From Thermodesulfovibrionia bacterium (lineage in GTDB: Bacteria > Nitrospirota > Thermodesulfovibrionia > UBA6902 > BMS3Bbin08), in contig JAUXYI010000011.1 in NCBI GenBank assembly GCA_030694425.1, forward strand, positions 14,301 to 78,300: a stretch of 64,000 bases of DNA. The letters run 5' to 3'. Within the stretch, counting starts at the first letter, position 1. Each line of letters begins with the position of its first letter. Position numbers and translations under genes: made by a program. Below are positions 27,471 to 52,997 of this stretch, piece by piece. The notes under the pieces are model-generated. The model did no database searches. It saw only the letters and a list, made by a program, of their open reading frames with translations, and was not told the origin of the DNA.

Positions 27471-28865
27471 CTGGGCATTCAATCACTAAAAAAACAACTT
27501 GAAAATCTGGACAAAAAATATCTCTGGCACCCATTTACACAGATGAAGGAATGGGCAAAAGAAACGCCAATAATTATTACAGAAGGATGCGGTTCTTTTC
27601 TTAAAGATATTTCCGGCAGATGGTATCTTGACGGCGTAGCATCTATCTGGGTTACGGTCCACGGACACAGGAAAAAAGAAATAGACAATGCAATAAAAAG
27701 CCAGATTGATAAAATCAGCCACTCTACCCTGCTTGGACTCACACATCCGCCTGCCATAAAATTAGCAGAGAAACTCGTTCAGGTCGTAAACTCGTCACTC
27801 GTCACTCGTCACTCGTCACTATCTAAGGTCTTCTACTCTGACAATGGCTCTACTGCCGTAGAAATAGGACTTAAAGTGGCATTTCAGTACTGGCAGCATA
27901 AAGGGATCAAACGCAAAAAAAGATTTTTATCTCTTAACAATGCATATCACGGCGACACAATAGGGGCAGTTAGCGTCGGAGGGATTGATATATTCCACAA
28001 TATATTTTCTCCATTACTCTTTAAGTCTTACAAAGCGCCCTCTCCATATTGTTACCGCTGTGAGTTCGCTAAGAAATTTCCTTCCTGTAAACTATTTTGT
28101 CTTAAAAAAATGGAACAGGTAATGCAGAAACACCATCAGGAAATAGCTGGATTGATTATTGAGCCGATTATGCAGGGAGCGGGCGGAATGATTGTGTCTC
28201 CTCCGGGATATTTGAAGGGAGTCAGGAAATTATGTGATAAATACAATATCCTTATGATTGCAGATGAGGTTGCAACCGGCTTTGGCAGGACAGGCAAAAT
28301 GTTCGCTTGCGAGCATGAAAAAGTAAGTCCTGATATCCTCTGCCTTGCAAAGGGAATCACAGGAGGCTACCTTCCGCTTGCCGCAACCATTACAACAGAA
28401 AAAATTTATAATGCGTTCCTTGGAGAATTTAAAGATTTAAAGACCTTTTTCCACGGGCATACTTACACAGGAAACCAGATTGCCTGTGCTGCTGCTGTTG
28501 CAAATCTTGAGATATTTAAAAAAGAAAAAACACTAAAAACGATGCAGAAAAAAATAGAAATATTAAAAAAAGGATTGTTCAAAATTACAGAACTTCCTCA
28601 TGTTGGCGATGTAAGACAGAAGGGTTTCATGGTTGGCATAGAGCTTGTGAAGGACAAAAAAACCAAGGAGCCTTATCCGACAGGAGAAAAAATCGGTTGG
28701 AAGGTTTGCTACAAGGCAAGAAAAAAAGGTCTTATCATAAGACCCCTCGGCAATGTCATAGTCTTAATGCCGCCTTTAAGCATTTCGCATCAGGAATTAA
28801 AAGGTCTTATTCAGATAACTGCAGAGGCGATTAAAGAAGTAACAGAAAAGATGGATAGGGGGTAG
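27471..28865 (+). CDS. bioA: Adenosylmethionine-8-amino-7-oxononanoate aminotransferase (class III aminotransferase)
   Basis: PLP-dependent AT-III fold; the ORF track starts at ATG 27543, but the conserved N-terminal motif YLWHPFTQM lies upstream in frame, so a non-ATG start (CTG 27471, 6 nt after aaggag) is likely; contains (CTCGTCA)x4 in frame at 27791-27820. Confidence 0.8.
   Translation: MGIQSLKKQLENLDKKYLWHPFTQMKEWAKETPIIITEGCGSFLKDISGRWYLDGVASIWVTVHGHRKKEIDNAIKSQIDKISHSTLLGLTHPPAIKLAEKLVQVVNSSLVTRHSSLSKVFYSDNGSTAVEIGLKVAFQYWQHKGIKRKKRFLSLNNAYHGDTIGAVSVGGIDIFHNIFSPLLFKSYKAPSPYCYRCEFAKKFPSCKLFCLKKMEQVMQKHHQEIAGLIIEPIMQGAGGMIVSPPGYLKGVRKLCDKYNILMIADEVATGFGRTGKMFACEHEKVSPDILCLAKGITGGYLPLAATITTEKIYNAFLGEFKDLKTFFHGHTYTGNQIACAAAVANLEIFKKEKTLKTMQKKIEILKKGLFKITELPHVGDVRQKGFMVGIELVKDKKTKEPYPTGEKIGWKVCYKARKKGLIIRPLGNVIVLMPPLSISHQELKGLIQITAEAIKEVTEKMDRG
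27791..27820. repeat. Tandem heptamer (CTCGTCA)x4 in frame in bioA
   Basis: ctcgtcactcgtcactcgtcactcgtcact encodes [10 protein letters not shown]. Confidence 0.85.
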
Positions 28866-43444: not shown

Positions 43445-44746
43445 CTATCTTCTCTTTAGAGCATTTTCAACTGTTTTAATGGCGCAGAATTCTCCGCACA
43501 TACTGCAAACCTCTGATTCTGTTGGCGGAACTTCTGAACGCCACCTTTTAACCCTTTCAGGGTCAAGACTAAGCGCTATCTGGCCATTCCAGTCAAGCGC
43601 CTTTCTCTTTTTTGCCATCTCTATATCAATATCAATAGCGCCTTTAATGCCCTTTGCAATATCTGCGGCATGTGCAGCTATTTTTGATGCAATAACACCC
43701 TCTTTTACATCCTCAAGATTTGGCAGCCTTATATGTTCAGACGGCGTCACATAGCAGAGGAAGTCAGCGCCTGCGGCGCCTGCAATAGCGCCGCCGATAG
43801 CAGCAGCAATATGGTCGTAGCCCATTGCAATATCTGTCACAAGAGGACCAAGCACATAGAAAGGAGCGCCCTTGCATATCTCTTTCTGCATTTTTATATT
43901 AAGCTCAACCTGATTAAGAGGCACATGACCGGGGCCCTCAATAATAACCTGCACGCCTGCTTTAACTGCCCTATCCCTTAACTTCCCAAGGGTCAAAAGC
44001 TCATCTATCTGTGTTCTGTCAGTGGCATCAGCAAGACATCCAGGCCGTGCGCCATCACCAAGGCTCAATGTAAGGTCATACTTCCTCGCTATTTCAAGAA
44101 GCCTGTCATAATATTCATAAAGAGGGTTCTCCCTATCATTGTATATCATCCACTCAACAAGAAAAGCGCCTCCGCGGCTTACAATATCAAGGATCCTGCC
44201 GTCTTCCCTGAGAGTCTCGATTGTCTTTCTTGTGAGCCCGCAGTGCACTGTAACAAAATCAACGCCATCTTCTGCATGTTCCTCAATAGTTGAAAAGAGT
44301 TCATCAATACTCATCTTTGCTATAGAGCCTTTATTTTCAGCAGCCCTCACCACTGCTTCGTATATCGGGACGGTCCCAACCGCAATAGTTGATTTTTTAA
44401 GGAGCAGTTTTCTTATATCCTTAATAGGACCTCCTGTTGAAAGGTCCATGACCGCATCAGCGCCGTATTTAATAAGCACATCAAGTTTTTGCATCTCTTC
44501 ATCAAGCGACACTCTGTCCTTTGATGTGCCTATATTTGCATTTATCTTTGTTCTCAAACCTCTTCCTATGCCTAATGGCCTTATATCATGTTTTATATTC
44601 CTCGTAATAACTGTCAGTCCCTGAGCAATATCCATGGAAAGCTGCTCGGGTTCAATGCCTTCCATGAGAGCTGCTTGTTTTACTTCATCAGTAATTAAAC
44701 CTTTTCTGGCAAATTCAATCCGTGTTTGCTGTAAATTTTTGTTCAT
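43445..44746 (-). CDS. thiC: Phosphomethylpyrimidine synthase
   Basis: 433 aa; C-terminal CSMCGEFCA motif. Confidence 0.95.
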   Translation of the reverse strand: MNKNLQQTRIEFARKGLITDEVKQAALMEGIEPEQLSMDIAQGLTVITRNIKHDIRPLGIGRGLRTKINANIGTSKDRVSLDEEMQKLDVLIKYGADAVMDLSTGGPIKDIRKLLLKKSTIAVGTVPIYEAVVRAAENKGSIAKMSIDELFSTIEEHAEDGVDFVTVHCGLTRKTIETLREDGRILDIVSRGGAFLVEWMIYNDRENPLYEYYDRLLEIARKYDLTLSLGDGARPGCLADATDRTQIDELLTLGKLRDRAVKAGVQVIIEGPGHVPLNQVELNIKMQKEICKGAPFYVLGPLVTDIAMGYDHIAAAIGGAIAGAAGADFLCYVTPSEHIRLPNLEDVKEGVIASKIAAHAADIAKGIKGAIDIDIEMAKKRKALDWNGQIALSLDPERVKRWRSEVPPTESEVCSMCGEFCAIKTVENALKRR

Positions 44747-45472: not shown

Positions 45473-45554
45473 GTTGTTGCAAATTGTAGGGGCGGGGTGA
45501 CCCCGCCCTTACACCAGATACACGTTACTTGTTACTCGTCACTTGTTACTGTCT

Positions 45555-46325: not shown

Positions 46326-46379
46326 AGTCCTCCTCTTAAAATTAAAATGTAAAAATCAAAATGCAAAATTAAGGAATAA

Positions 46380-46500
46380 ATTTAAATAGCTCAAAGTTCA
46401 AAACTCAAAGCTCAAAACCACAGCTCCAAACCCTTAAACTATTCCAAATAGTTTTTGGTTTTAAGCTGTAGTTTTGACTTTTAACATTTGAGTTTTGAGT
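46380..46500. repeat. Long imperfect palindrome (about 60-nt arms) between thiS and thiG
   Basis: agctcaaagttcaaaactcaaagctcaaaaccacagctccaaaccc ... ggttttaagctgtagttttgacttttaacatttgagttttgagtt. Confidence 0.6.
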
Positions 46501-46549
46501 TGTTTACTCCACAATTTTTATTTTTGAATTTTAAATTTTGAATTTTTAC

Positions 46550-46750: not shown

Positions 46751-46795
46751 AATCTCACGCGTACTAATGAGTTCATTAGTAAAGCCTCATAAGCG

Positions 46796-46870
46796 GTCAT
46801 TCCTGCGAAAGCAGGAATCCAGGAAAACCAAAGAAAATACTGGATTCCCGCTTAAGGACTGCGGGAATGA
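46796..46870. mobile_element. MITE-like element (GTCATTCCTGCGAAAGCAGGAATCCAG ... CTGGATTCCCGCTTAAGGACTGCGGGAATGAC)
   Basis: Between thiH-like and thiS. Confidence 0.7.
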
Positions 46871-46919
46871 CGGAAAAAGCAATACGCCCTTACTTATGGT
46901 CTTCTTAGTAACTCTAAAC

Positions 46920-48242
46920 TTATACATGCACATCCCTTTTCCCTTTTTCTATAAGGTCAAGTTTCTCTGAAATCCCGTTCCTGCTTTTTGCACTTTCCTC
47001 TTTCAGTCTTTTTATTAATTGCTCCTTTACATCTCTTGATGCATAGTCCTCTATATATTCTTTAAGGCTCAAGAGGGCATTTTCCTGACAGAAATTTTTT
47101 ATTGCCTGTTTTTGTGCAAGATGTTTAAATTTTTCGCCGCTCCTGTTTTCCCTGTAACATGCTGTGCAAAGGCTTGGAATGAGCCCCAGTTCTGCAATCT
47201 TTTCCATGATTTCCTCGAGACTTCTTTTATCCCCTATTTCAAATTGTGCTGTATCGCTATCCTCAATATAGCCCCACGGGCTCGTCTTTGAACCTGCTGA
47301 TACCTGAGACGCACCCATCAAAAATAATTTATCCCGAAATTCGGATGATTCCCTTGTGGTAACCACAATTCCAACATAAGGAAGAGCCAGCCTGTATATT
47401 GCAACTATTTTTTTGAAATCGCTGTCTGAAACTTTATATCTTGCTTCGTTCAATTTACTCCCCTCTGCCGGCTGAAGCCTTGGAACAGAAAGTGTATGAG
47501 GACCAAATCCATACTTTTTTATGAGCCTATGACAGTGTGCCATCAATGCCCACACATCCCAGCGCCAGTCATATAAACCCAGAAGCACGCCCATCCCGAT
47601 ATCGTCAAAACCTGCTTCTATCGCCCTGTCCATAACACCAAGCCTCCATTCATAATCAGCCTTTGGACCAGAGGGGTGCATAAGTTTATATGTCGGGAAG
47701 TGATATGTCTCCTGAAAACATTGATAAACCCCTGCGCCTGATGTCTTAAGTCTCTTAAAGTCCTCTACTCTCATAGGCGCAGTATTTATATGCAAAATTC
47801 TTATATCCGTGTTCTTATAAATTCCATCAATTATCTTTTCAAGGTAATCTACGCCTACAAGTTTTGAATGATCACTCGTTACGAGCAGCAGTCTTTTATA
47901 TCCTTTGCCTGCAAGCAGCGAAGCCTCTTGTATTGCTTCACCTATACTAAGACTTTTTCTCCTCGCATTTTTATTGCCTTTTCTAAAGCCGCAATATAAA
48001 CAGTCATTCACGCACTCATTTGAAAGGTAAAGAGGTGCGAACAGGACAATCCTCCTGCCATAAACTTTTTCTTTAATCTTACGGGCTGTTTCAAAAACAT
48101 CTTCCCATAATTCTTTGTCCTTCAATGCAATTATATGAGAAATTTCCTTAAGGCTTAATATCTGCAGGTCCAGGGACTTGGCAAGAATATCTTTGATAAG
48201 GGTTCTGTAGGTTTTTACTGAACTATCTTTTGAAGCACGCAT
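46920..48242 (-). CDS. thiH: Radical SAM tyrosine lyase, ThiH/HydG family, with HydG-type C-terminal CX2CX22C motif
   Basis: CVNDCLYCGF radical SAM motif; C-terminal CTACYRENRSGEKFKHLAQKQAIKNFC; ORF-track N-terminus (to 48335) overlaps the riboswitch, so the real start is ATG 48242 (MRASKDSSVK) after the leader terminator. Confidence 0.8.
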   Translation of the reverse strand: MRASKDSSVKTYRTLIKDILAKSLDLQILSLKEISHIIALKDKELWEDVFETARKIKEKVYGRRIVLFAPLYLSNECVNDCLYCGFRKGNKNARRKSLSIGEAIQEASLLAGKGYKRLLLVTSDHSKLVGVDYLEKIIDGIYKNTDIRILHINTAPMRVEDFKRLKTSGAGVYQCFQETYHFPTYKLMHPSGPKADYEWRLGVMDRAIEAGFDDIGMGVLLGLYDWRWDVWALMAHCHRLIKKYGFGPHTLSVPRLQPAEGSKLNEARYKVSDSDFKKIVAIYRLALPYVGIVVTTRESSEFRDKLFLMGASQVSAGSKTSPWGYIEDSDTAQFEIGDKRSLEEIMEKIAELGLIPSLCTACYRENRSGEKFKHLAQKQAIKNFCQENALLSLKEYIEDYASRDVKEQLIKRLKEESAKSRNGISEKLDLIEKGKRDVHV

Positions 48243-48243
48243 T

Positions 48244-48292
48244 AAAATAAAAAACCGTATCCCTGTCGGTGACTCGTAGAGAAGAGATACGG
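48244..48292 (-). terminator. Intrinsic terminator forming the expression platform of the TPP riboswitch
   Basis: Minus strand CCGUAUC...GAUACGG followed by UUUUUUAUUUU immediately before the thiH start. Confidence 0.65.
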
Positions 48293-48303
48293 CAGCCTCC
48301 TTT

Positions 48304-48478
48304 TCCTCCGCCGGCATTATCCGGGTCAGGTTCAAGGGGTCTCCTATCTTCAGAACTAAGATTTCAGAACACAGATATCAGACTTTTTTGTTCTGTTTTC
48401 TGCGCTCTGGGTTCTGTGCTCTGATATTAGGACTCTCAGGCTTTGTCCCGTAATTACTTACGTGACGTTGCCTCCCCC
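48304..48478 (-). ncRNA. TPP riboswitch (thi-box) aptamer, interrupted by an inserted palindromic element of about 90 nt
   Basis: Minus strand shows GGGGGAGGC...GCCUGAGAG...(insert)...ACCCCUUGAACCUGACCCGGAUAAUGCCGGCGGAGG, matching the conserved CUGAGA, ACCC and GAACCUGAUCxGGxUAAUxCCxGCGxAGG elements. Confidence 0.7.
48355..48440. repeat. CAGAACACAGA-type palindromic element (copy inside the riboswitch)
   Basis: cagaacacagatatcagac...ggttctgtgctctgatattagg; related copy at 51297-51372. Confidence 0.7.
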
Positions 48479-48687
48479 AGGGTTAGATTAAGTATATCTT
48501 TTAATAAGAAATGGTGTCAAGTTCACTTTAATACAATTGCTTGATTAAAATCTTAAACAATGGCATAATTTACTTTATTTAATTTTCCCATTCCAATGTT
48601 GATTTGTCCCGACTTAATCGGGATTAAGATTTCAAAAACGAATTTCATTTTATTTTTAACAGTCCGGAAACAAGATTAGATTTTCAA

Positions 48688-49653
48688 ATGAAAATAATTG
48701 CACTCTTAATAACAGCTTTGTTCTTCAGCCTTCAGGGCTTTGCAGGGGGACAATTCGCTTACAGCGCTGTTTTGCTCGACAGGGTTGTTGCTACGGTAAA
48801 TAATGATGTAATAACATGGAGTGAACTCAGGAAGAATATAGAGATTGAGAACAAAGAACTCCTCAACGGGCTTAAAGATGAGGAAAGAGAAAAAAAGATA
48901 AAGGAGATTGAACCATCTTTTCTTAACAGCATGATTGACATGAAATTGCAGATTCAGGAAGCCGTCAAACTCGGACTTAATGTAAGCCCTCATGAGACAA
49001 ATGAGGCTGCTGCTGATATTAAGAGGAAATATAATTTAACTGATGAGAATTTTATTGAATCTTTAAAAGCAGAAGGTCTGAGTCTGGAAGGATATAAAGC
49101 ACGTCTTACAGAACAGATTTTACTTTCAAAGGCTGTAAGATACGAGGTCAGAGATGCAGTGCTTATCACTGATAAAGAAATAGAAAAATACTATGATGCA
49201 AATAAAGAAAAATATCAAAAAGAGGAAAAGGTTAGTATAAGGCAGATATTCTTTAATCTAAAAGACAGCTCACAAAAAGCTGAAGTAGAAGCCAAGGCTG
49301 AAGCAGTTATGCAGAGGATAAAAAAAGGAGAGGACTTTGCAAAACTGGCAAGTGAGTTTTCTGAGGATGAAAACAGGCAATTTAGCGGAGACCTTGGATA
49401 CATCAGTCGCGGCAGTGTAATGAAAGAGATTGAAGACGAGGCGTTTGTCTTAAAAGTTGGTATTACCAGTAAACCCTTCTGGAGCTCAAAGGGGCTTCAT
49501 ATAATAAAAGTTGAGGACGGGAAAGAGGCTGGCCTTTCAAAAAAAGTAAGAGAAGAAATAAAAGAAATCCTTTTTGAAAAAGCCTTTAAATCAAAATATG
49601 AAGAGTGGATAAAAAAACTGAGAGAGAAAGCTTATATAGAAATAAATCTTTAA
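48688..49653 (+). CDS. SurA-like periplasmic chaperone / parvulin-type PPIase
   Basis: 321 aa; signal peptide, SurA N-domain, PpiC rotamase domain (FSGDLGYISRGSVMKE). Confidence 0.75.
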   Translation: MKIIALLITALFFSLQGFAGGQFAYSAVLLDRVVATVNNDVITWSELRKNIEIENKELLNGLKDEEREKKIKEIEPSFLNSMIDMKLQIQEAVKLGLNVSPHETNEAAADIKRKYNLTDENFIESLKAEGLSLEGYKARLTEQILLSKAVRYEVRDAVLITDKEIEKYYDANKEKYQKEEKVSIRQIFFNLKDSSQKAEVEAKAEAVMQRIKKGEDFAKLASEFSEDENRQFSGDLGYISRGSVMKEIEDEAFVLKVGITSKPFWSSKGLHIIKVEDGKEAGLSKKVREEIKEILFEKAFKSKYEEWIKKLREKAYIEINL

Positions 49654-49821: not shown

Positions 49822-51372
<1,551 letters not shown>

Positions 51373-51401
51373 TGTTCTGTGCTCTGTCTTCTGATATATT
51401 T

Positions 51402-52997
51402 ATGCATGAAGAAAAAATTTTAGTCCTTGATTTTGGCTCCCAGTACACCCAGCTTATCGCAAGGCGCGTGAGGGAAAGCAAGGTCTATTCCGAAATATTC
51501 CCTTATAATGTTTCTTTTGATAAAATTATATCCTTTTCCCCTAAAGGAATAATCCTTTCAGGAGGACCTTCAAGCGTGTATGATAAAAATGCCCCTCTGC
51601 CTGACAAAAGAATTTTTGAACTCGGAATCCCGGTTTTGGGAATATGCTACGGCATGCAGCTTATGGCATATTGTATTGGCGGAAAGGTTGCAAAAGCAGC
51701 AAAAAGAGAATACGGACGCGCCGAACTGATTATTGATGACGACTCAGATTTATTGAAAGGAATCAAGTCAGAAGTCAGAAGTCAGAAGTCAGAAGTCAGG
51801 GGACTCGTCACTCGTCACTCGTCACTCGTCACTGTCGTATGGATGAGCCACGGCGACAGGATTGAAGAATATCCCAGGGGTTTCAAACCAATTGCACACA
51901 CAGATAATTCTCCGGTTGCAGCAATGGCTGATAAAAACAGGAGGTTTTATGCCCTGCAGTTTCATCCTGAAGTTGTACATACTGAGCATGGCTCAGAAAT
52001 CTTAAGAAATTTTATATTTGACATATGTAAATGCAAGCCCGAATGGACAATGAAATCATTTATAGAAACAACTGTAGAAGAGATAAAAAACAGGGTTAAG
52101 AATGATAAGGTTGTATGTGCAATAAGCGGCGGGGTTGATTCAGCAGTTACAGCAGTGTTGATGCACAGGGCAATTAAAAAACAGCTTATATGCATCTTTG
52201 TAGATAACGGCGTCCTGAGGACGGGGGAAGCAAAGAAGGTTGAAAATACACTAAAAAAACATTTTCATATGAATATAGTTTGTGTTGACGCATCAAAAAG
52301 ATTTTTAAAAAAACTAAAAGGCGTCACTGACCCTGAAAAAAAGAGAAAAATCATTGGCAATGAATTTATAAGGATTTTTGAAGAACAGGCAAAAAAAATT
52401 AAAGGGGTTAAATATCTTGCACAGGGGACATTATATCCTGATGTCATTGAAAGCACGTCATTTAAAGGTCCTTCAGCCACCATAAAAAGCCATCATAATG
52501 TAGGCGGTCTTTTAAAGGATATGAAGCTTCGGCTTATTGAACCTCTGAGGGAACTTTTTAAAGATGAAGTGAGAATTCTGGGCAGGGAGCTTGGGATGCC
52601 AGAAGAGGTTCTCAACCGGCATCCATTCCCCGGTCCGGGGCTTGCAATAAGGATTATTGGCGAGGTCACAGAACAGAGATGTGGTATCTTACGAAAAGCA
52701 GATGCCATTGTCCTTGAAGAGATTAAAAAATCAGGCCTTTATAATGAACTCTGGCAGGCATTTGCAGTCTTACTGCCTATAAAAACAGTAGGTGTCATGG
52801 GTGATGAGAGGACATATGAAAACGTTGTGGCTTTAAGGGCGGTAAAAAGCGTTGATGGAATGACTGCGGACTGGGCAAGGATTCCTTATGATATTCTTGG
52901 CAATATTTCAAACAGGATAATTAATGAGGTAAAAGGCGTTAACAGGGTTGTATTTGATATAAGCTCAAAGCCGCCAAGCACAATTGAGTGGGAGTAA
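51402..52997 (+). CDS. guaA: GMP synthase (glutamine-hydrolysing)
   Basis: GATase-1 (GICYGMQ), ATP-PPase SGGVDS, C-terminal dimerisation domain; start at [12 protein letters not shown]; carries a 68-nt heptamer insertion in the inter-domain linker. Confidence 0.95.
51766..51833. repeat. Tandem heptamers (AGTCAGA)x4-5 then (CTCGTCA)x4, in frame in guaA
   Basis: Encodes [24 protein letters not shown] between the GATase and ATP-PPase domains. Confidence 0.85.

Follow-up and report, generated by a model that had tools for sequence, protein, structure and literature searches.

An operon of thiamine genes lies on the minus strand of the 64-kb stretch of DNA analyzed here (contig JAUXYI010000011.1, from a Thermodesulfovibrionia bacterium of the Nitrospirota; the whole stretch is called the window below). 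Its leader, read on the minus strand, probably contains a working thiamine pyrophosphate (TPP) riboswitch in which one peripheral hairpin, P3a, has been lengthened by a palindrome of 7-nt repeats. All positions are window coordinates. The genes are ordered thiH-like, thiS, thiG, thiE (TMP-TENI), and thiC, and all five were assigned by Pfam. The minus-strand leader between 48483 and 48297 holds every block of a TPP aptamer. The thi-box blocks that an earlier note on this sequence had reported upstream of the thiH-like gene are all present where it placed them. The features of the leader and the first gene are as follows.

48491-48520, minus strand: sigma-70-type promoter, TTGACA (48520-48515), 18-nt spacer, TATACT (48496-48491); 11/12 consensus matches
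48297-48483, minus strand: complete TPP (THI-box) aptamer, called from its fold and its conservation in orthologs
48483-48479, minus strand: ACCCU, 5′ block of the aptamer
48478-48470, minus strand: aptamer block GGGGGAGGC
48441-48433, minus strand: aptamer block GCCUGAGAG, containing CUGAGAG
48340-48336, minus strand: aptamer block ACCCC
48333-48305, minus strand: aptamer block GAACCUGACCCGGAUAAUGCCGGCGGAGG
48340-48303, minus strand: 3′ aptamer stretch ACCCCUUGAACCUGACCCGGAUAAUGCCGGCGGAGGAA
48481-48479 with 48301-48299, minus strand: P1, CCU/AGG, from the minimum free energy (MFE) structure
48478-48474 with 48339-48335, minus strand: P2, GGGGG/CCCCU, from the MFE structure
48438-48473, minus strand: P3 with a clade-specific distal extension hairpin, GUC.CGUAA/UUACG.GAC (48466-48445), from the fold
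48439-48433, minus strand: junction J3-2, CUGAGAG
48342-48432, minus strand: P3a, an extended stem-loop with base helix UCCUA (48432-48428)/UAGGA (48346-48342)
48348-48423, minus strand: heptamer palindrome of 76 nt built of CAGAnnn/nnUCUG units (the insert)
48330-48305, minus strand: P4 (CCU/AGG) and P5 (CCGG/CCGG), from the MFE structure
48244-48292, minus strand: intrinsic terminator, stem CCGUAUCUCU (48292-48283)/AGGGAUACGG (48264-48255), 18-nt loop, U-run at 48254-48244
46920-48242, minus strand: thiH-like first gene, radical-SAM tyrosine-lyase-type (ThiH/HydG family), 440 aa; Pfam Radical_SAM and BATS

A 28-nt hairpin-forming stretch sits between GGGGGAGGC and GCCUGAGAG, and 92 nt separate the end of GCCUGAGAG from ACCCCUUGAACCUGACCCGGAUAAUGCCGGCGGAGGAA. 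Counted from CUGAGA to ACCC the gap is 93 nt, close to the roughly 90 nt given in the earlier note. The note took 2-4 nt to be normal at this point, which is true only of TPP riboswitches that lack P3a (PMC2258182). P3a, an optional stem-loop that follows the conserved UGAGA and precedes the 3′ strand of P2, occurs in 552 of 907 TPP riboswitches (Barrick and Breaker, 2007; PMC2258182). It is predicted to stack on P2, and the crystal structures leave room for it. A diagnostic feature of the subclass is an A-G or U-A pair that joins the base 5′ of P3 to the one 3′ of P3a (PMC2258182). In the window this junction pair is A48473 with G48341, and the extra hairpin is located exactly at the P3a position. 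P3a is always present in this lineage: 34 orthologous leaders carry one of 17-26 nt, flanked by A and G, and the short hairpin covaries, with double changes in four of its five pairs. The window P3a, at 91 nt, is about fourfold longer, with some 70 nt added. Thus, the anomaly is a lengthening of an existing peripheral hairpin and not a breach of a tight junction.

The added sequence is highly regular. Its 5′ arm consists of five CAGAnnn units (CAGAGCA, CAGAACC, CAGAGCG, CAGAAAA, and CAGAACA) followed by an A-rich loop, and its 3′ arm of five complementary units (UCUGAUA, UCUGUGU, UCUGAAA, UCUUAGU, and UCUGAAG). Tandem Repeats Finder detected a period of 7/14 at 48349-48382, and likewise at 51317-51393 in the spacer between guaB and guaA. 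The extended P3a segment folds on its own as one hairpin (−36.5 kcal/mol, z −8.1), and the insert hairpin is folded in every predicted conformer of the leader. A plus-strand open reading frame (ORF) at 48269-48424 (51 aa) overlaps the insert. It was disregarded, as it lies mostly within the insert that most orthologs lack.

The identification of the leader as a TPP riboswitch is carried by its orthologs. We fetched 80 loci encoding relatives of the first gene and scanned 40 of them with Rfam. The best relatives are found in Nitrospirota/Thermodesulfovibrionia metagenome-assembled genomes, with protein identities of 65-79%. A match to RF00059 at or above the gathering cut-off (54.3 bits, which is an operational criterion and not a biological one) is located directly upstream of thiH in 35/40 scanned loci, with scores of 55-71 bits. 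The window leader aligns block by block with the orthologous leaders through the promoter hexamers, the aptamer blocks, and the terminator, and both hexamers are invariant across the aligned leaders. Thus, by alignment, the leader is an ortholog of accepted TPP riboswitches. Its conserved blocks, judged by the same comparison, are not there by chance. The core blocks of RF00059 (GGGG..., CUGAGA, ACCC, and GAACCUGA-NNGG-NUAAU-NCCNGCG-NAGG) are all present, and the columns that are invariant in 34 insert-free, Rfam-positive orthologs are identical in the window (44/44). Nine other leaders with a long P3a keep 43-44 of these 44 columns.

Profile and folding results point the same way. A sequence profile of the orthologs gave two colinear matches to the intact leader, at profile positions 3-39 (16.3 bits) and 30-93 (47.0 bits). 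Swapping the distal part of the 93-nt segment in silico for a GAAA loop resulted in a single full-length match of 67.1 bits, inside the range of the profile's own training sequences (66-89.5 bits). The unconstrained MFE structure of 48486-48297 yields P1, P2, P3, the long P3a, P4, and P5. RNAalifold on seven long-P3a leaders agreed with this structure and showed compensatory pairs in P2, in P5, and at the base of P3a; across the eight long-P3a leaders the P3a base helix varies in sequence and stays paired. In the 34 orthologs 96.8% of cells are paired, a value reached by 0/500 shuffles. The terminator arms are 10 nt each and 90% complementary, and CCGUAU...AUACGG with the U-run is kept in the orthologs. 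A simple terminator scan did not call the hairpin at 48292-48244 because its loop exceeds 8 nt.

We therefore consider it likely, from sequence comparison and modeling together, that the leader works as a TPP riboswitch that controls thiH-like-thiS-thiG-thiE-thiC by transcription termination (OFF), and that the long P3a is a tolerated passenger repeat. The earlier note had also proposed an OFF switch ahead of the thi operon, and the Pfam gene calls and the conserved terminator support this assignment. The promoter, the canonical aptamer fold, and the conserved terminator are in silico results, and the switching step by TPP is taken from the known mechanism of the family. Transcription would begin near 48484, 1-3 nt ahead of P1. 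With TPP bound, P1/P2 and both sensor arms (P2-P3 and P4-P5) would be locked, which would leave CCGUAUCUCU free to pair with AGGGAUACGG as the terminator, and the polymerase would halt at the U-run before the ATG at 48242. Without TPP, pairing of the terminator's pyrimidine-rich 5′ arm with the 3′ strand of P1 and the adjacent linker would allow read-through into the operon. In 30/36 orthologs the predicted antiterminator partner includes this P1-3′/linker region. The repeat is predicted to fold co-transcriptionally into a stable stand-alone hairpin that returns the 3′ strand of P2 to the side of J3-2. P3a would stack on P2 and point away from the core, leaving the ligand-binding core unaffected. 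It is because the hairpin would fold by itself, restore the proximity of J3-2 and P2, and point off the core that the repeat can be thought of as a passenger.

Several observations weigh against this interpretation. There was no match to RF00059 in the window at the gathering score, and only two tRNAs were called window-wide. A permissive local scan found a partial match (32.4 bits, E 1.2e−4) at 48286-48367 that covers the P4/P5 half only. This goes, formally, halfway toward the missing covariance-model match that the earlier note thought would speak against a riboswitch; its other concern, that the conserved blocks might be coincidental, is answered by the orthologous leaders. A custom covariance model (R1; 34 insert-free orthologs, hand-set structure, run on 47900-48800 with filters off) did not bridge the insert. 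A section of the insert was wrongly aligned as the 5′ half (41.3 bits), and the sequence-profile test with and without excision was used instead. P1 is only 3 bp, as it is in many orthologs (3-4 bp). The full-length MFE structure forms the terminator without ligand and thus does not by itself account for the ON state. The predicted alternative pairing in the window uses the 3′ strands of the P3a base and of P2, unlike in the orthologs, and so the expression platform modeled here may behave somewhat differently from theirs. A hairpin and U-run platform is present and conserved, with a long 18-nt loop and with an antiterminator that differs between the window and the orthologs. TPP binding and termination by the window leader are themselves predictions from these models. 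Finally, the nearest relative (L001, 79% ThiH identity) lacks the insert, and for this reason tolerance in this exact lineage may not have lasted long. A more general role of P3a in the antiterminator was considered and rejected: the MFE of a window prefix pairs AGAUAGGAG.CC(CCUU) with the 5′ arm of the terminator, and this pairing is not conserved in the orthologs.

The Rfam result can plausibly be explained by the P3 extension and the long P3a acting together, as two large insertions. Orthologs with a single extension score above the cut-off: 55-63 bits where only P3 is long, and 55-57 bits where only P3a is long (L040, with a 95-nt P3a and a short P3, 57.5 bits; L032, with a 45-nt P3a, 55.4 bits). 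The Rfam model thus tolerates the long-P3a variant. Long P3 stems like that of the window are found in L002, L003, L005, L019, and L028, and the P3 interior is 9-12 nt in most orthologs.

Comparison of orthologous leaders, which the earlier note had recommended for tracing the insert, resulted in seven further examples, to which a metagenome scan added two. A homologous heptamer palindrome is found in P3a, at the same site, in seven other Thermodesulfovibrionia genomes (L003, 78 nt; L013, 98 nt; L020, 95 nt; L032, 45 nt; L033, 88 nt; L037, 94 nt; L040, 95 nt) and on two metagenome contigs (L101 and L140). With the window included, 8 of about 42 Thermodesulfovibrionia leaders with a recognizable aptamer have a long P3a. 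In each of them the palindrome folds into one long hairpin closed by the P3a base, and a terminator is present in all of these leaders. The window, five of the long-P3a orthologs, and both metagenome examples fall below the Rfam curated cut-off. By sequence, this is a new structural variant of a well-known riboswitch that is recurrent in a Nitrospirota lineage. The window insert can be aligned with the P3a inserts of L003, L013, L020, L033, and L037. The 33-nt 3′ arm is identical in the window and L003, although their ThiH proteins are only 75% identical. In a neighbor-joining ThiH tree the long-P3a leaders are patchy, forming one clade of four and four singletons. Either at least five gains at one site of about 10 nt or many losses are implied; the tree is a single-protein one, is not robust, and cannot decide between the two.

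The insert is a member of a dispersed repeat family. The heptamer pattern CAGANNNCAGANNNCAGA, with one mismatch allowed, has 15 matches in the window versus 0.26 expected. They fall in three places: the thi insert, the spacer between guaB and guaA, and an array of another heptamer (AAGTCAG) within guaA. The family itself, named here CAGARCN for its unit, occurs about once per 30 kb in the window. Its second copy is the heptamer palindrome in the guaB-guaA spacer (51316-51393, plus strand). It can be aligned colinearly with the P3a inserts, and both CACAGAACCCAGA and (G/A)TCTGTAGTCTGTGTTCTG recur in the insert of L037. One block of the 3′ arm, TCTGTGTTCTG, is invariant across all seven aligned inserts and copies, the guaB-guaA copy included. 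At the level of the family, then, the earlier note was right to call the insert a copy of the guaB-guaA palindrome. An exact CAGAACACAGA in thiC (44008-44018) was not counted, being a lone 11-mer without an array and compatible with chance. The CAGAnnn matches in the flanks of L017, L021, L046, and L066 were also rejected, as they belong to different heptamer families.

A metagenome scan with the pattern CAGARCCCRGA-N15-45-TCTGTGTTCTG gave 77 matches on 71 contigs, which are 74 distinct copies after extension of the arms. Just 2/77 matches are in a TPP context. The copies have a median length of about 78 nt and a median folding energy of about −30 kcal/mol. The G+C content of the contigs is 37-69%, compared to about 39% for the genome of the window, and the hosts therefore probably include organisms unlike this one. 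A single sample (Ga0187892) contributed about 20 of the contigs, an indication of genomes with multiple copies. One further contig (L091) has a c-di-GMP-I riboswitch (44.8 bits) at 384-466, about 270 nt downstream of a heptamer palindrome, with no evident link between the two. Copies in structural RNA loci are as follows.

L106, 4372-4417: between tRNA genes
L126, 7997-8045: between tRNA genes
L137, 1591-1639: between tRNA genes
L132, 1460-1500: between the two spacer tRNAs of a 16S-23S rRNA operon
L109, 1917-1970: within the 5′ part of a 16S rRNA (1826-2140), V1 region, model positions 1-246

The rRNA flanks of the L109 copy are complementary (GTCAAAGA/TCTTTGAT), and thus the palindrome extends an rRNA hairpin. 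Targeting of hairpin loops by the repeat was not supported in general: complementarity in the flanks of 73 metagenome copies was 4.22 versus 3.97 ± 0.12 for permuted flanks. Survival only where a hairpin is harmless is a reading equally as good as targeting of pre-existing hairpins. We did not see fixed termini, a fixed-length unit, conserved terminal inverted repeats, or a target duplication among the family copies, and the arms vary in length by whole heptamers. Stop-free frames of at least 100 codons span 53/74 copies, and 20 copies have at least 40 codons on both sides; these frames are ambiguous because of the high G+C content and the stop-free heptamers. In the literature that we searched, we did not find a description of a CAGARCN heptamer family or of repeats inside riboswitches. 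We suggest, tentatively and at rather less than even confidence, that CAGARCN palindromes are a previously undescribed family spread across distant lineages that repeatedly settles, or survives only, in apical loops and spacers of structured transcribed RNA, and that some mechanism, for instance a specialized enzyme or a binding protein, keeps the unit uniform. On this view, the long P3a would illustrate how a riboswitch is colonized again and again at a single permissive site.

The earlier note left it undecided whether the riboswitch tolerates the insertion or has been inactivated by it. Tolerance is largely borne out. In a decaying relic the operon would be either constitutively expressed or constitutively terminated, and the failure to reach the RF00059 gathering score, a P1 down to 3 bp, and a terminator in the ligand-free MFE could all be read in this way. 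We think such a loss of function very improbable, given that all 44 invariant core columns are kept, that the promoter and the terminator are conserved, and that the canonical fold is the MFE of the aptamer. Moreover, nine other leaders with a long P3a, whose lineages show 65-75% ThiH identity, have an intact core, at least seven other genomes have both an intact core and a terminator, and two of the eight long-P3a genome leaders pass the Rfam cut-off. A long P3a could alternatively be ancestral in the clade, the short forms of 17-26 nt being the result of repeated deletions. Palindromes are prone to deletion. The patchy tree is compatible with such losses, and long residence is suggested by base helices that differ in sequence among lineages with their pairing kept. 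However, copies of the family are scattered over unrelated contexts and over genomes ranging from 37 to 69% G+C, and the family thus behaves like an element arriving at sites, the short P3a hairpins covary on their own and contain no heptamer remnants, and the tree carries the weakness noted above. We regard an ancestral long P3a as unlikely.

It is harder to separate a tolerated passenger from a selected functional module. The hairpin might bind a protein that recognizes hairpins of the CAGARCN type, might undergo RNase III-type processing and so link the leader to mRNA decay, or might, as a kinetic spacer, slow the closure of P2 and thereby tune the time available for sensing TPP. Such a role would fit the presence of homologous palindromes at exactly the P3a site in 8 of about 42 leaders and on two metagenome contigs, in a family that occurs in the window about once per 30 kb. 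Elsewhere in the flanks of the long-P3a loci, about 7 kb, the pattern matches only unrelated heptamer families. The invariant TCTGTGTTCTG block and the 3′ arm shared with L003 also suggest constraint, and other members are in transcribed, processed RNA (tRNA-tRNA spacers, the 16S V1 loop, and the guaB-guaA spacer). Yet most orthologs, including the nearest, do without the palindrome, and the rarity of TPP contexts among the metagenome matches indicates that the element is not riboswitch-specific. Total P3a length ranges from 45 to 98 nt by the number of units, as expected of slippage-prone neutral repeats, and we found no candidate binding protein and no evidence of cleavage. A selected module is, in our view, decidedly unlikely, and a working riboswitch with a tolerated repeat remains the reading that we favor.

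The start of the first gene also needs correction. The mechanical ORF at 46920-48335 (TTG start, 471 aa) runs into the aptamer, as the earlier note had pointed out, and TTG 48335 is merely the first start after a stop. The ATG at 48242, which the note proposed as the real start, agrees with the orthologs. It lies 2 nt past the U-run, compared to 6-25 nt for ortholog starts, and in the orthologs 10-16 variable residues precede a conserved I(R/K)(D/E)ILAKSL motif. Several close relatives likewise have no obvious Shine-Dalgarno sequence. The protein passes as a HydG equivalog (NCBIfam TIGR03955, 427 bits, cut-off 312), falls below the ThiH cut-off (TIGR02351, 307 versus 380 bits), and has a HydG-type C-terminal CX2CX22C motif (CTAC...22 aa...C). 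In the window and in over 40 relatives, this HydG-like gene nevertheless stands first, after a TPP riboswitch, in an operon with thiS-thiG-thiE-thiC. From its sequence, the product may be an enzyme of HydG architecture that serves as the thiazole tyrosine lyase.

Repeats of other families are common within and around the operon. The thiS-thiG spacer (46326-46549, minus strand, 224 nt) forms one hairpin of about 200 nt from nested heptamer palindromes (−67.2 kcal/mol, z −7.1), with CAAAAUU-type units in the outer arms and CAAAACU-type units in the inner arms. The thiG-thiE spacer (45519-45550) also has heptamer arrays, and the operon mRNA is therefore studded with such hairpins. The thiH-thiS spacer (46794-46873, minus strand) contains a compound inverted repeat, GUCAUUCCCGC...GCGGGAAUCC followed by GGAUUCCUGC-UUUC-GCAGGAAUGAC, for which a loose pattern found no second copy in the window. 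Inside the GATase domain of guaA, at 51765-51833 (plus strand), there are two perfect heptamer arrays, AAGTCAG x5 and ACTCGTC x4.4, together 69 nt. They are translated in frame, and the loop is 11 residues longer than in the PDB GMP synthase 3tqi. The ACTCGTC array is found again at 27790-27820, and L017 and L021 carry arrays of the AAGTCAG type between thiG and thiE. For guaA, the mechanical ORF takes as its start a GTG (51372) that lies within the guaB-guaA palindrome. Translation probably begins at ATG 51402 instead, since the protein read from that codon aligns end to end with PDB GMP synthases. Separate tandem arrays of period 7 number about 30 in the window as a whole, and their units are diverse (AATGCAA, AGTTACG, TCGTCTA, TAACTTT, and others). 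Genomes of such a heptamer-rich style have been described in cyanobacteria and Beggiatoaceae (MacGregor, 2015; PMC4679880). Nitrospirota are not mentioned in that paper, and in the searched literature we found no report of this style for the phylum.

The 16S V1 copy on L109 resembles rRNA intervening sequences and the small dispersed repeats (SDR) of Nostoc in being a repeat-derived hairpin in an apical loop that preserves the fold of the host RNA. Intervening sequences, or expansion hairpins, occur in rRNA helices. The SDR, in work by Elhai and colleagues from 2008, reportedly occur in hairpins and heptamer arrays. The CAGARCN sequences and organisms differ from both, and the family is known from sequence copies, not as a mobile element. 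Cyanobacterial STRR repeats are tandem heptamer repeats. The TAACTGA repeats of Beggiatoaceae, cyanobacteria, and Bacteroidetes have in common with the CAGARCN family a 7-nt tandem unit, abundance in the intergenic regions and leaders of particular genomes, occurrence in distant lineages, and occasional translation (MacGregor, 2015; PMC4679880). They differ from it in the unit, and the CAGARCN arrays occur as inverted pairs that form long hairpins. REP/BIME, REPIN, and MITE-type repeats (PMC3116915, PMC3333891) are, like the CAGARCN family, short, multi-copy, hairpin-forming, mostly non-coding, and often located in co-transcribed spacers. In contrast to these, the CAGARCN family spans contigs of 37-69% G+C, and no fixed unit length or ends were seen; no transposase was identified, an association with one not having been searched for.

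Among riboswitches, the closest comparison is to RF00059 members with P3a (PMC2258182). The window leader has the same blocks, P1-P5, the A-G pair, the position in a thiamine-gene leader, and the terminator platform. It differs in a P3a of 91 nt that is a heptamer-repeat palindrome and in an intact sequence that scores below the gathering cut-off. In eukaryotic TPP riboswitches with a long, variable P3 (PMC6414600), a peripheral helix of the pyrimidine sensor is likewise lengthened while the core is kept. There the long helix is P3 and P3a is absent, whereas the window has a long P3a together with a moderately lengthened P3, and its additional sequence belongs to a genomic repeat.

As a natural experiment, the long P3a bears on the plasticity of riboswitches: P3a apparently carries about 70 nt of foreign, self-folding sequence while the core is under purifying selection. 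P3a is thus a candidate insertion site for tags or scaffolds in riboswitch engineering. Repeat-rich genomes may be under-annotated for riboswitches at the Rfam curated cut-off, given the number of long-P3a leaders that miss it here. The patchy recurrence of the repeat at one site, together with the copies in rRNA and tRNA spacers, raises questions of how such repeats spread and why their units are conserved. The biology of this repeat family is a more novel question than the riboswitch variant itself.

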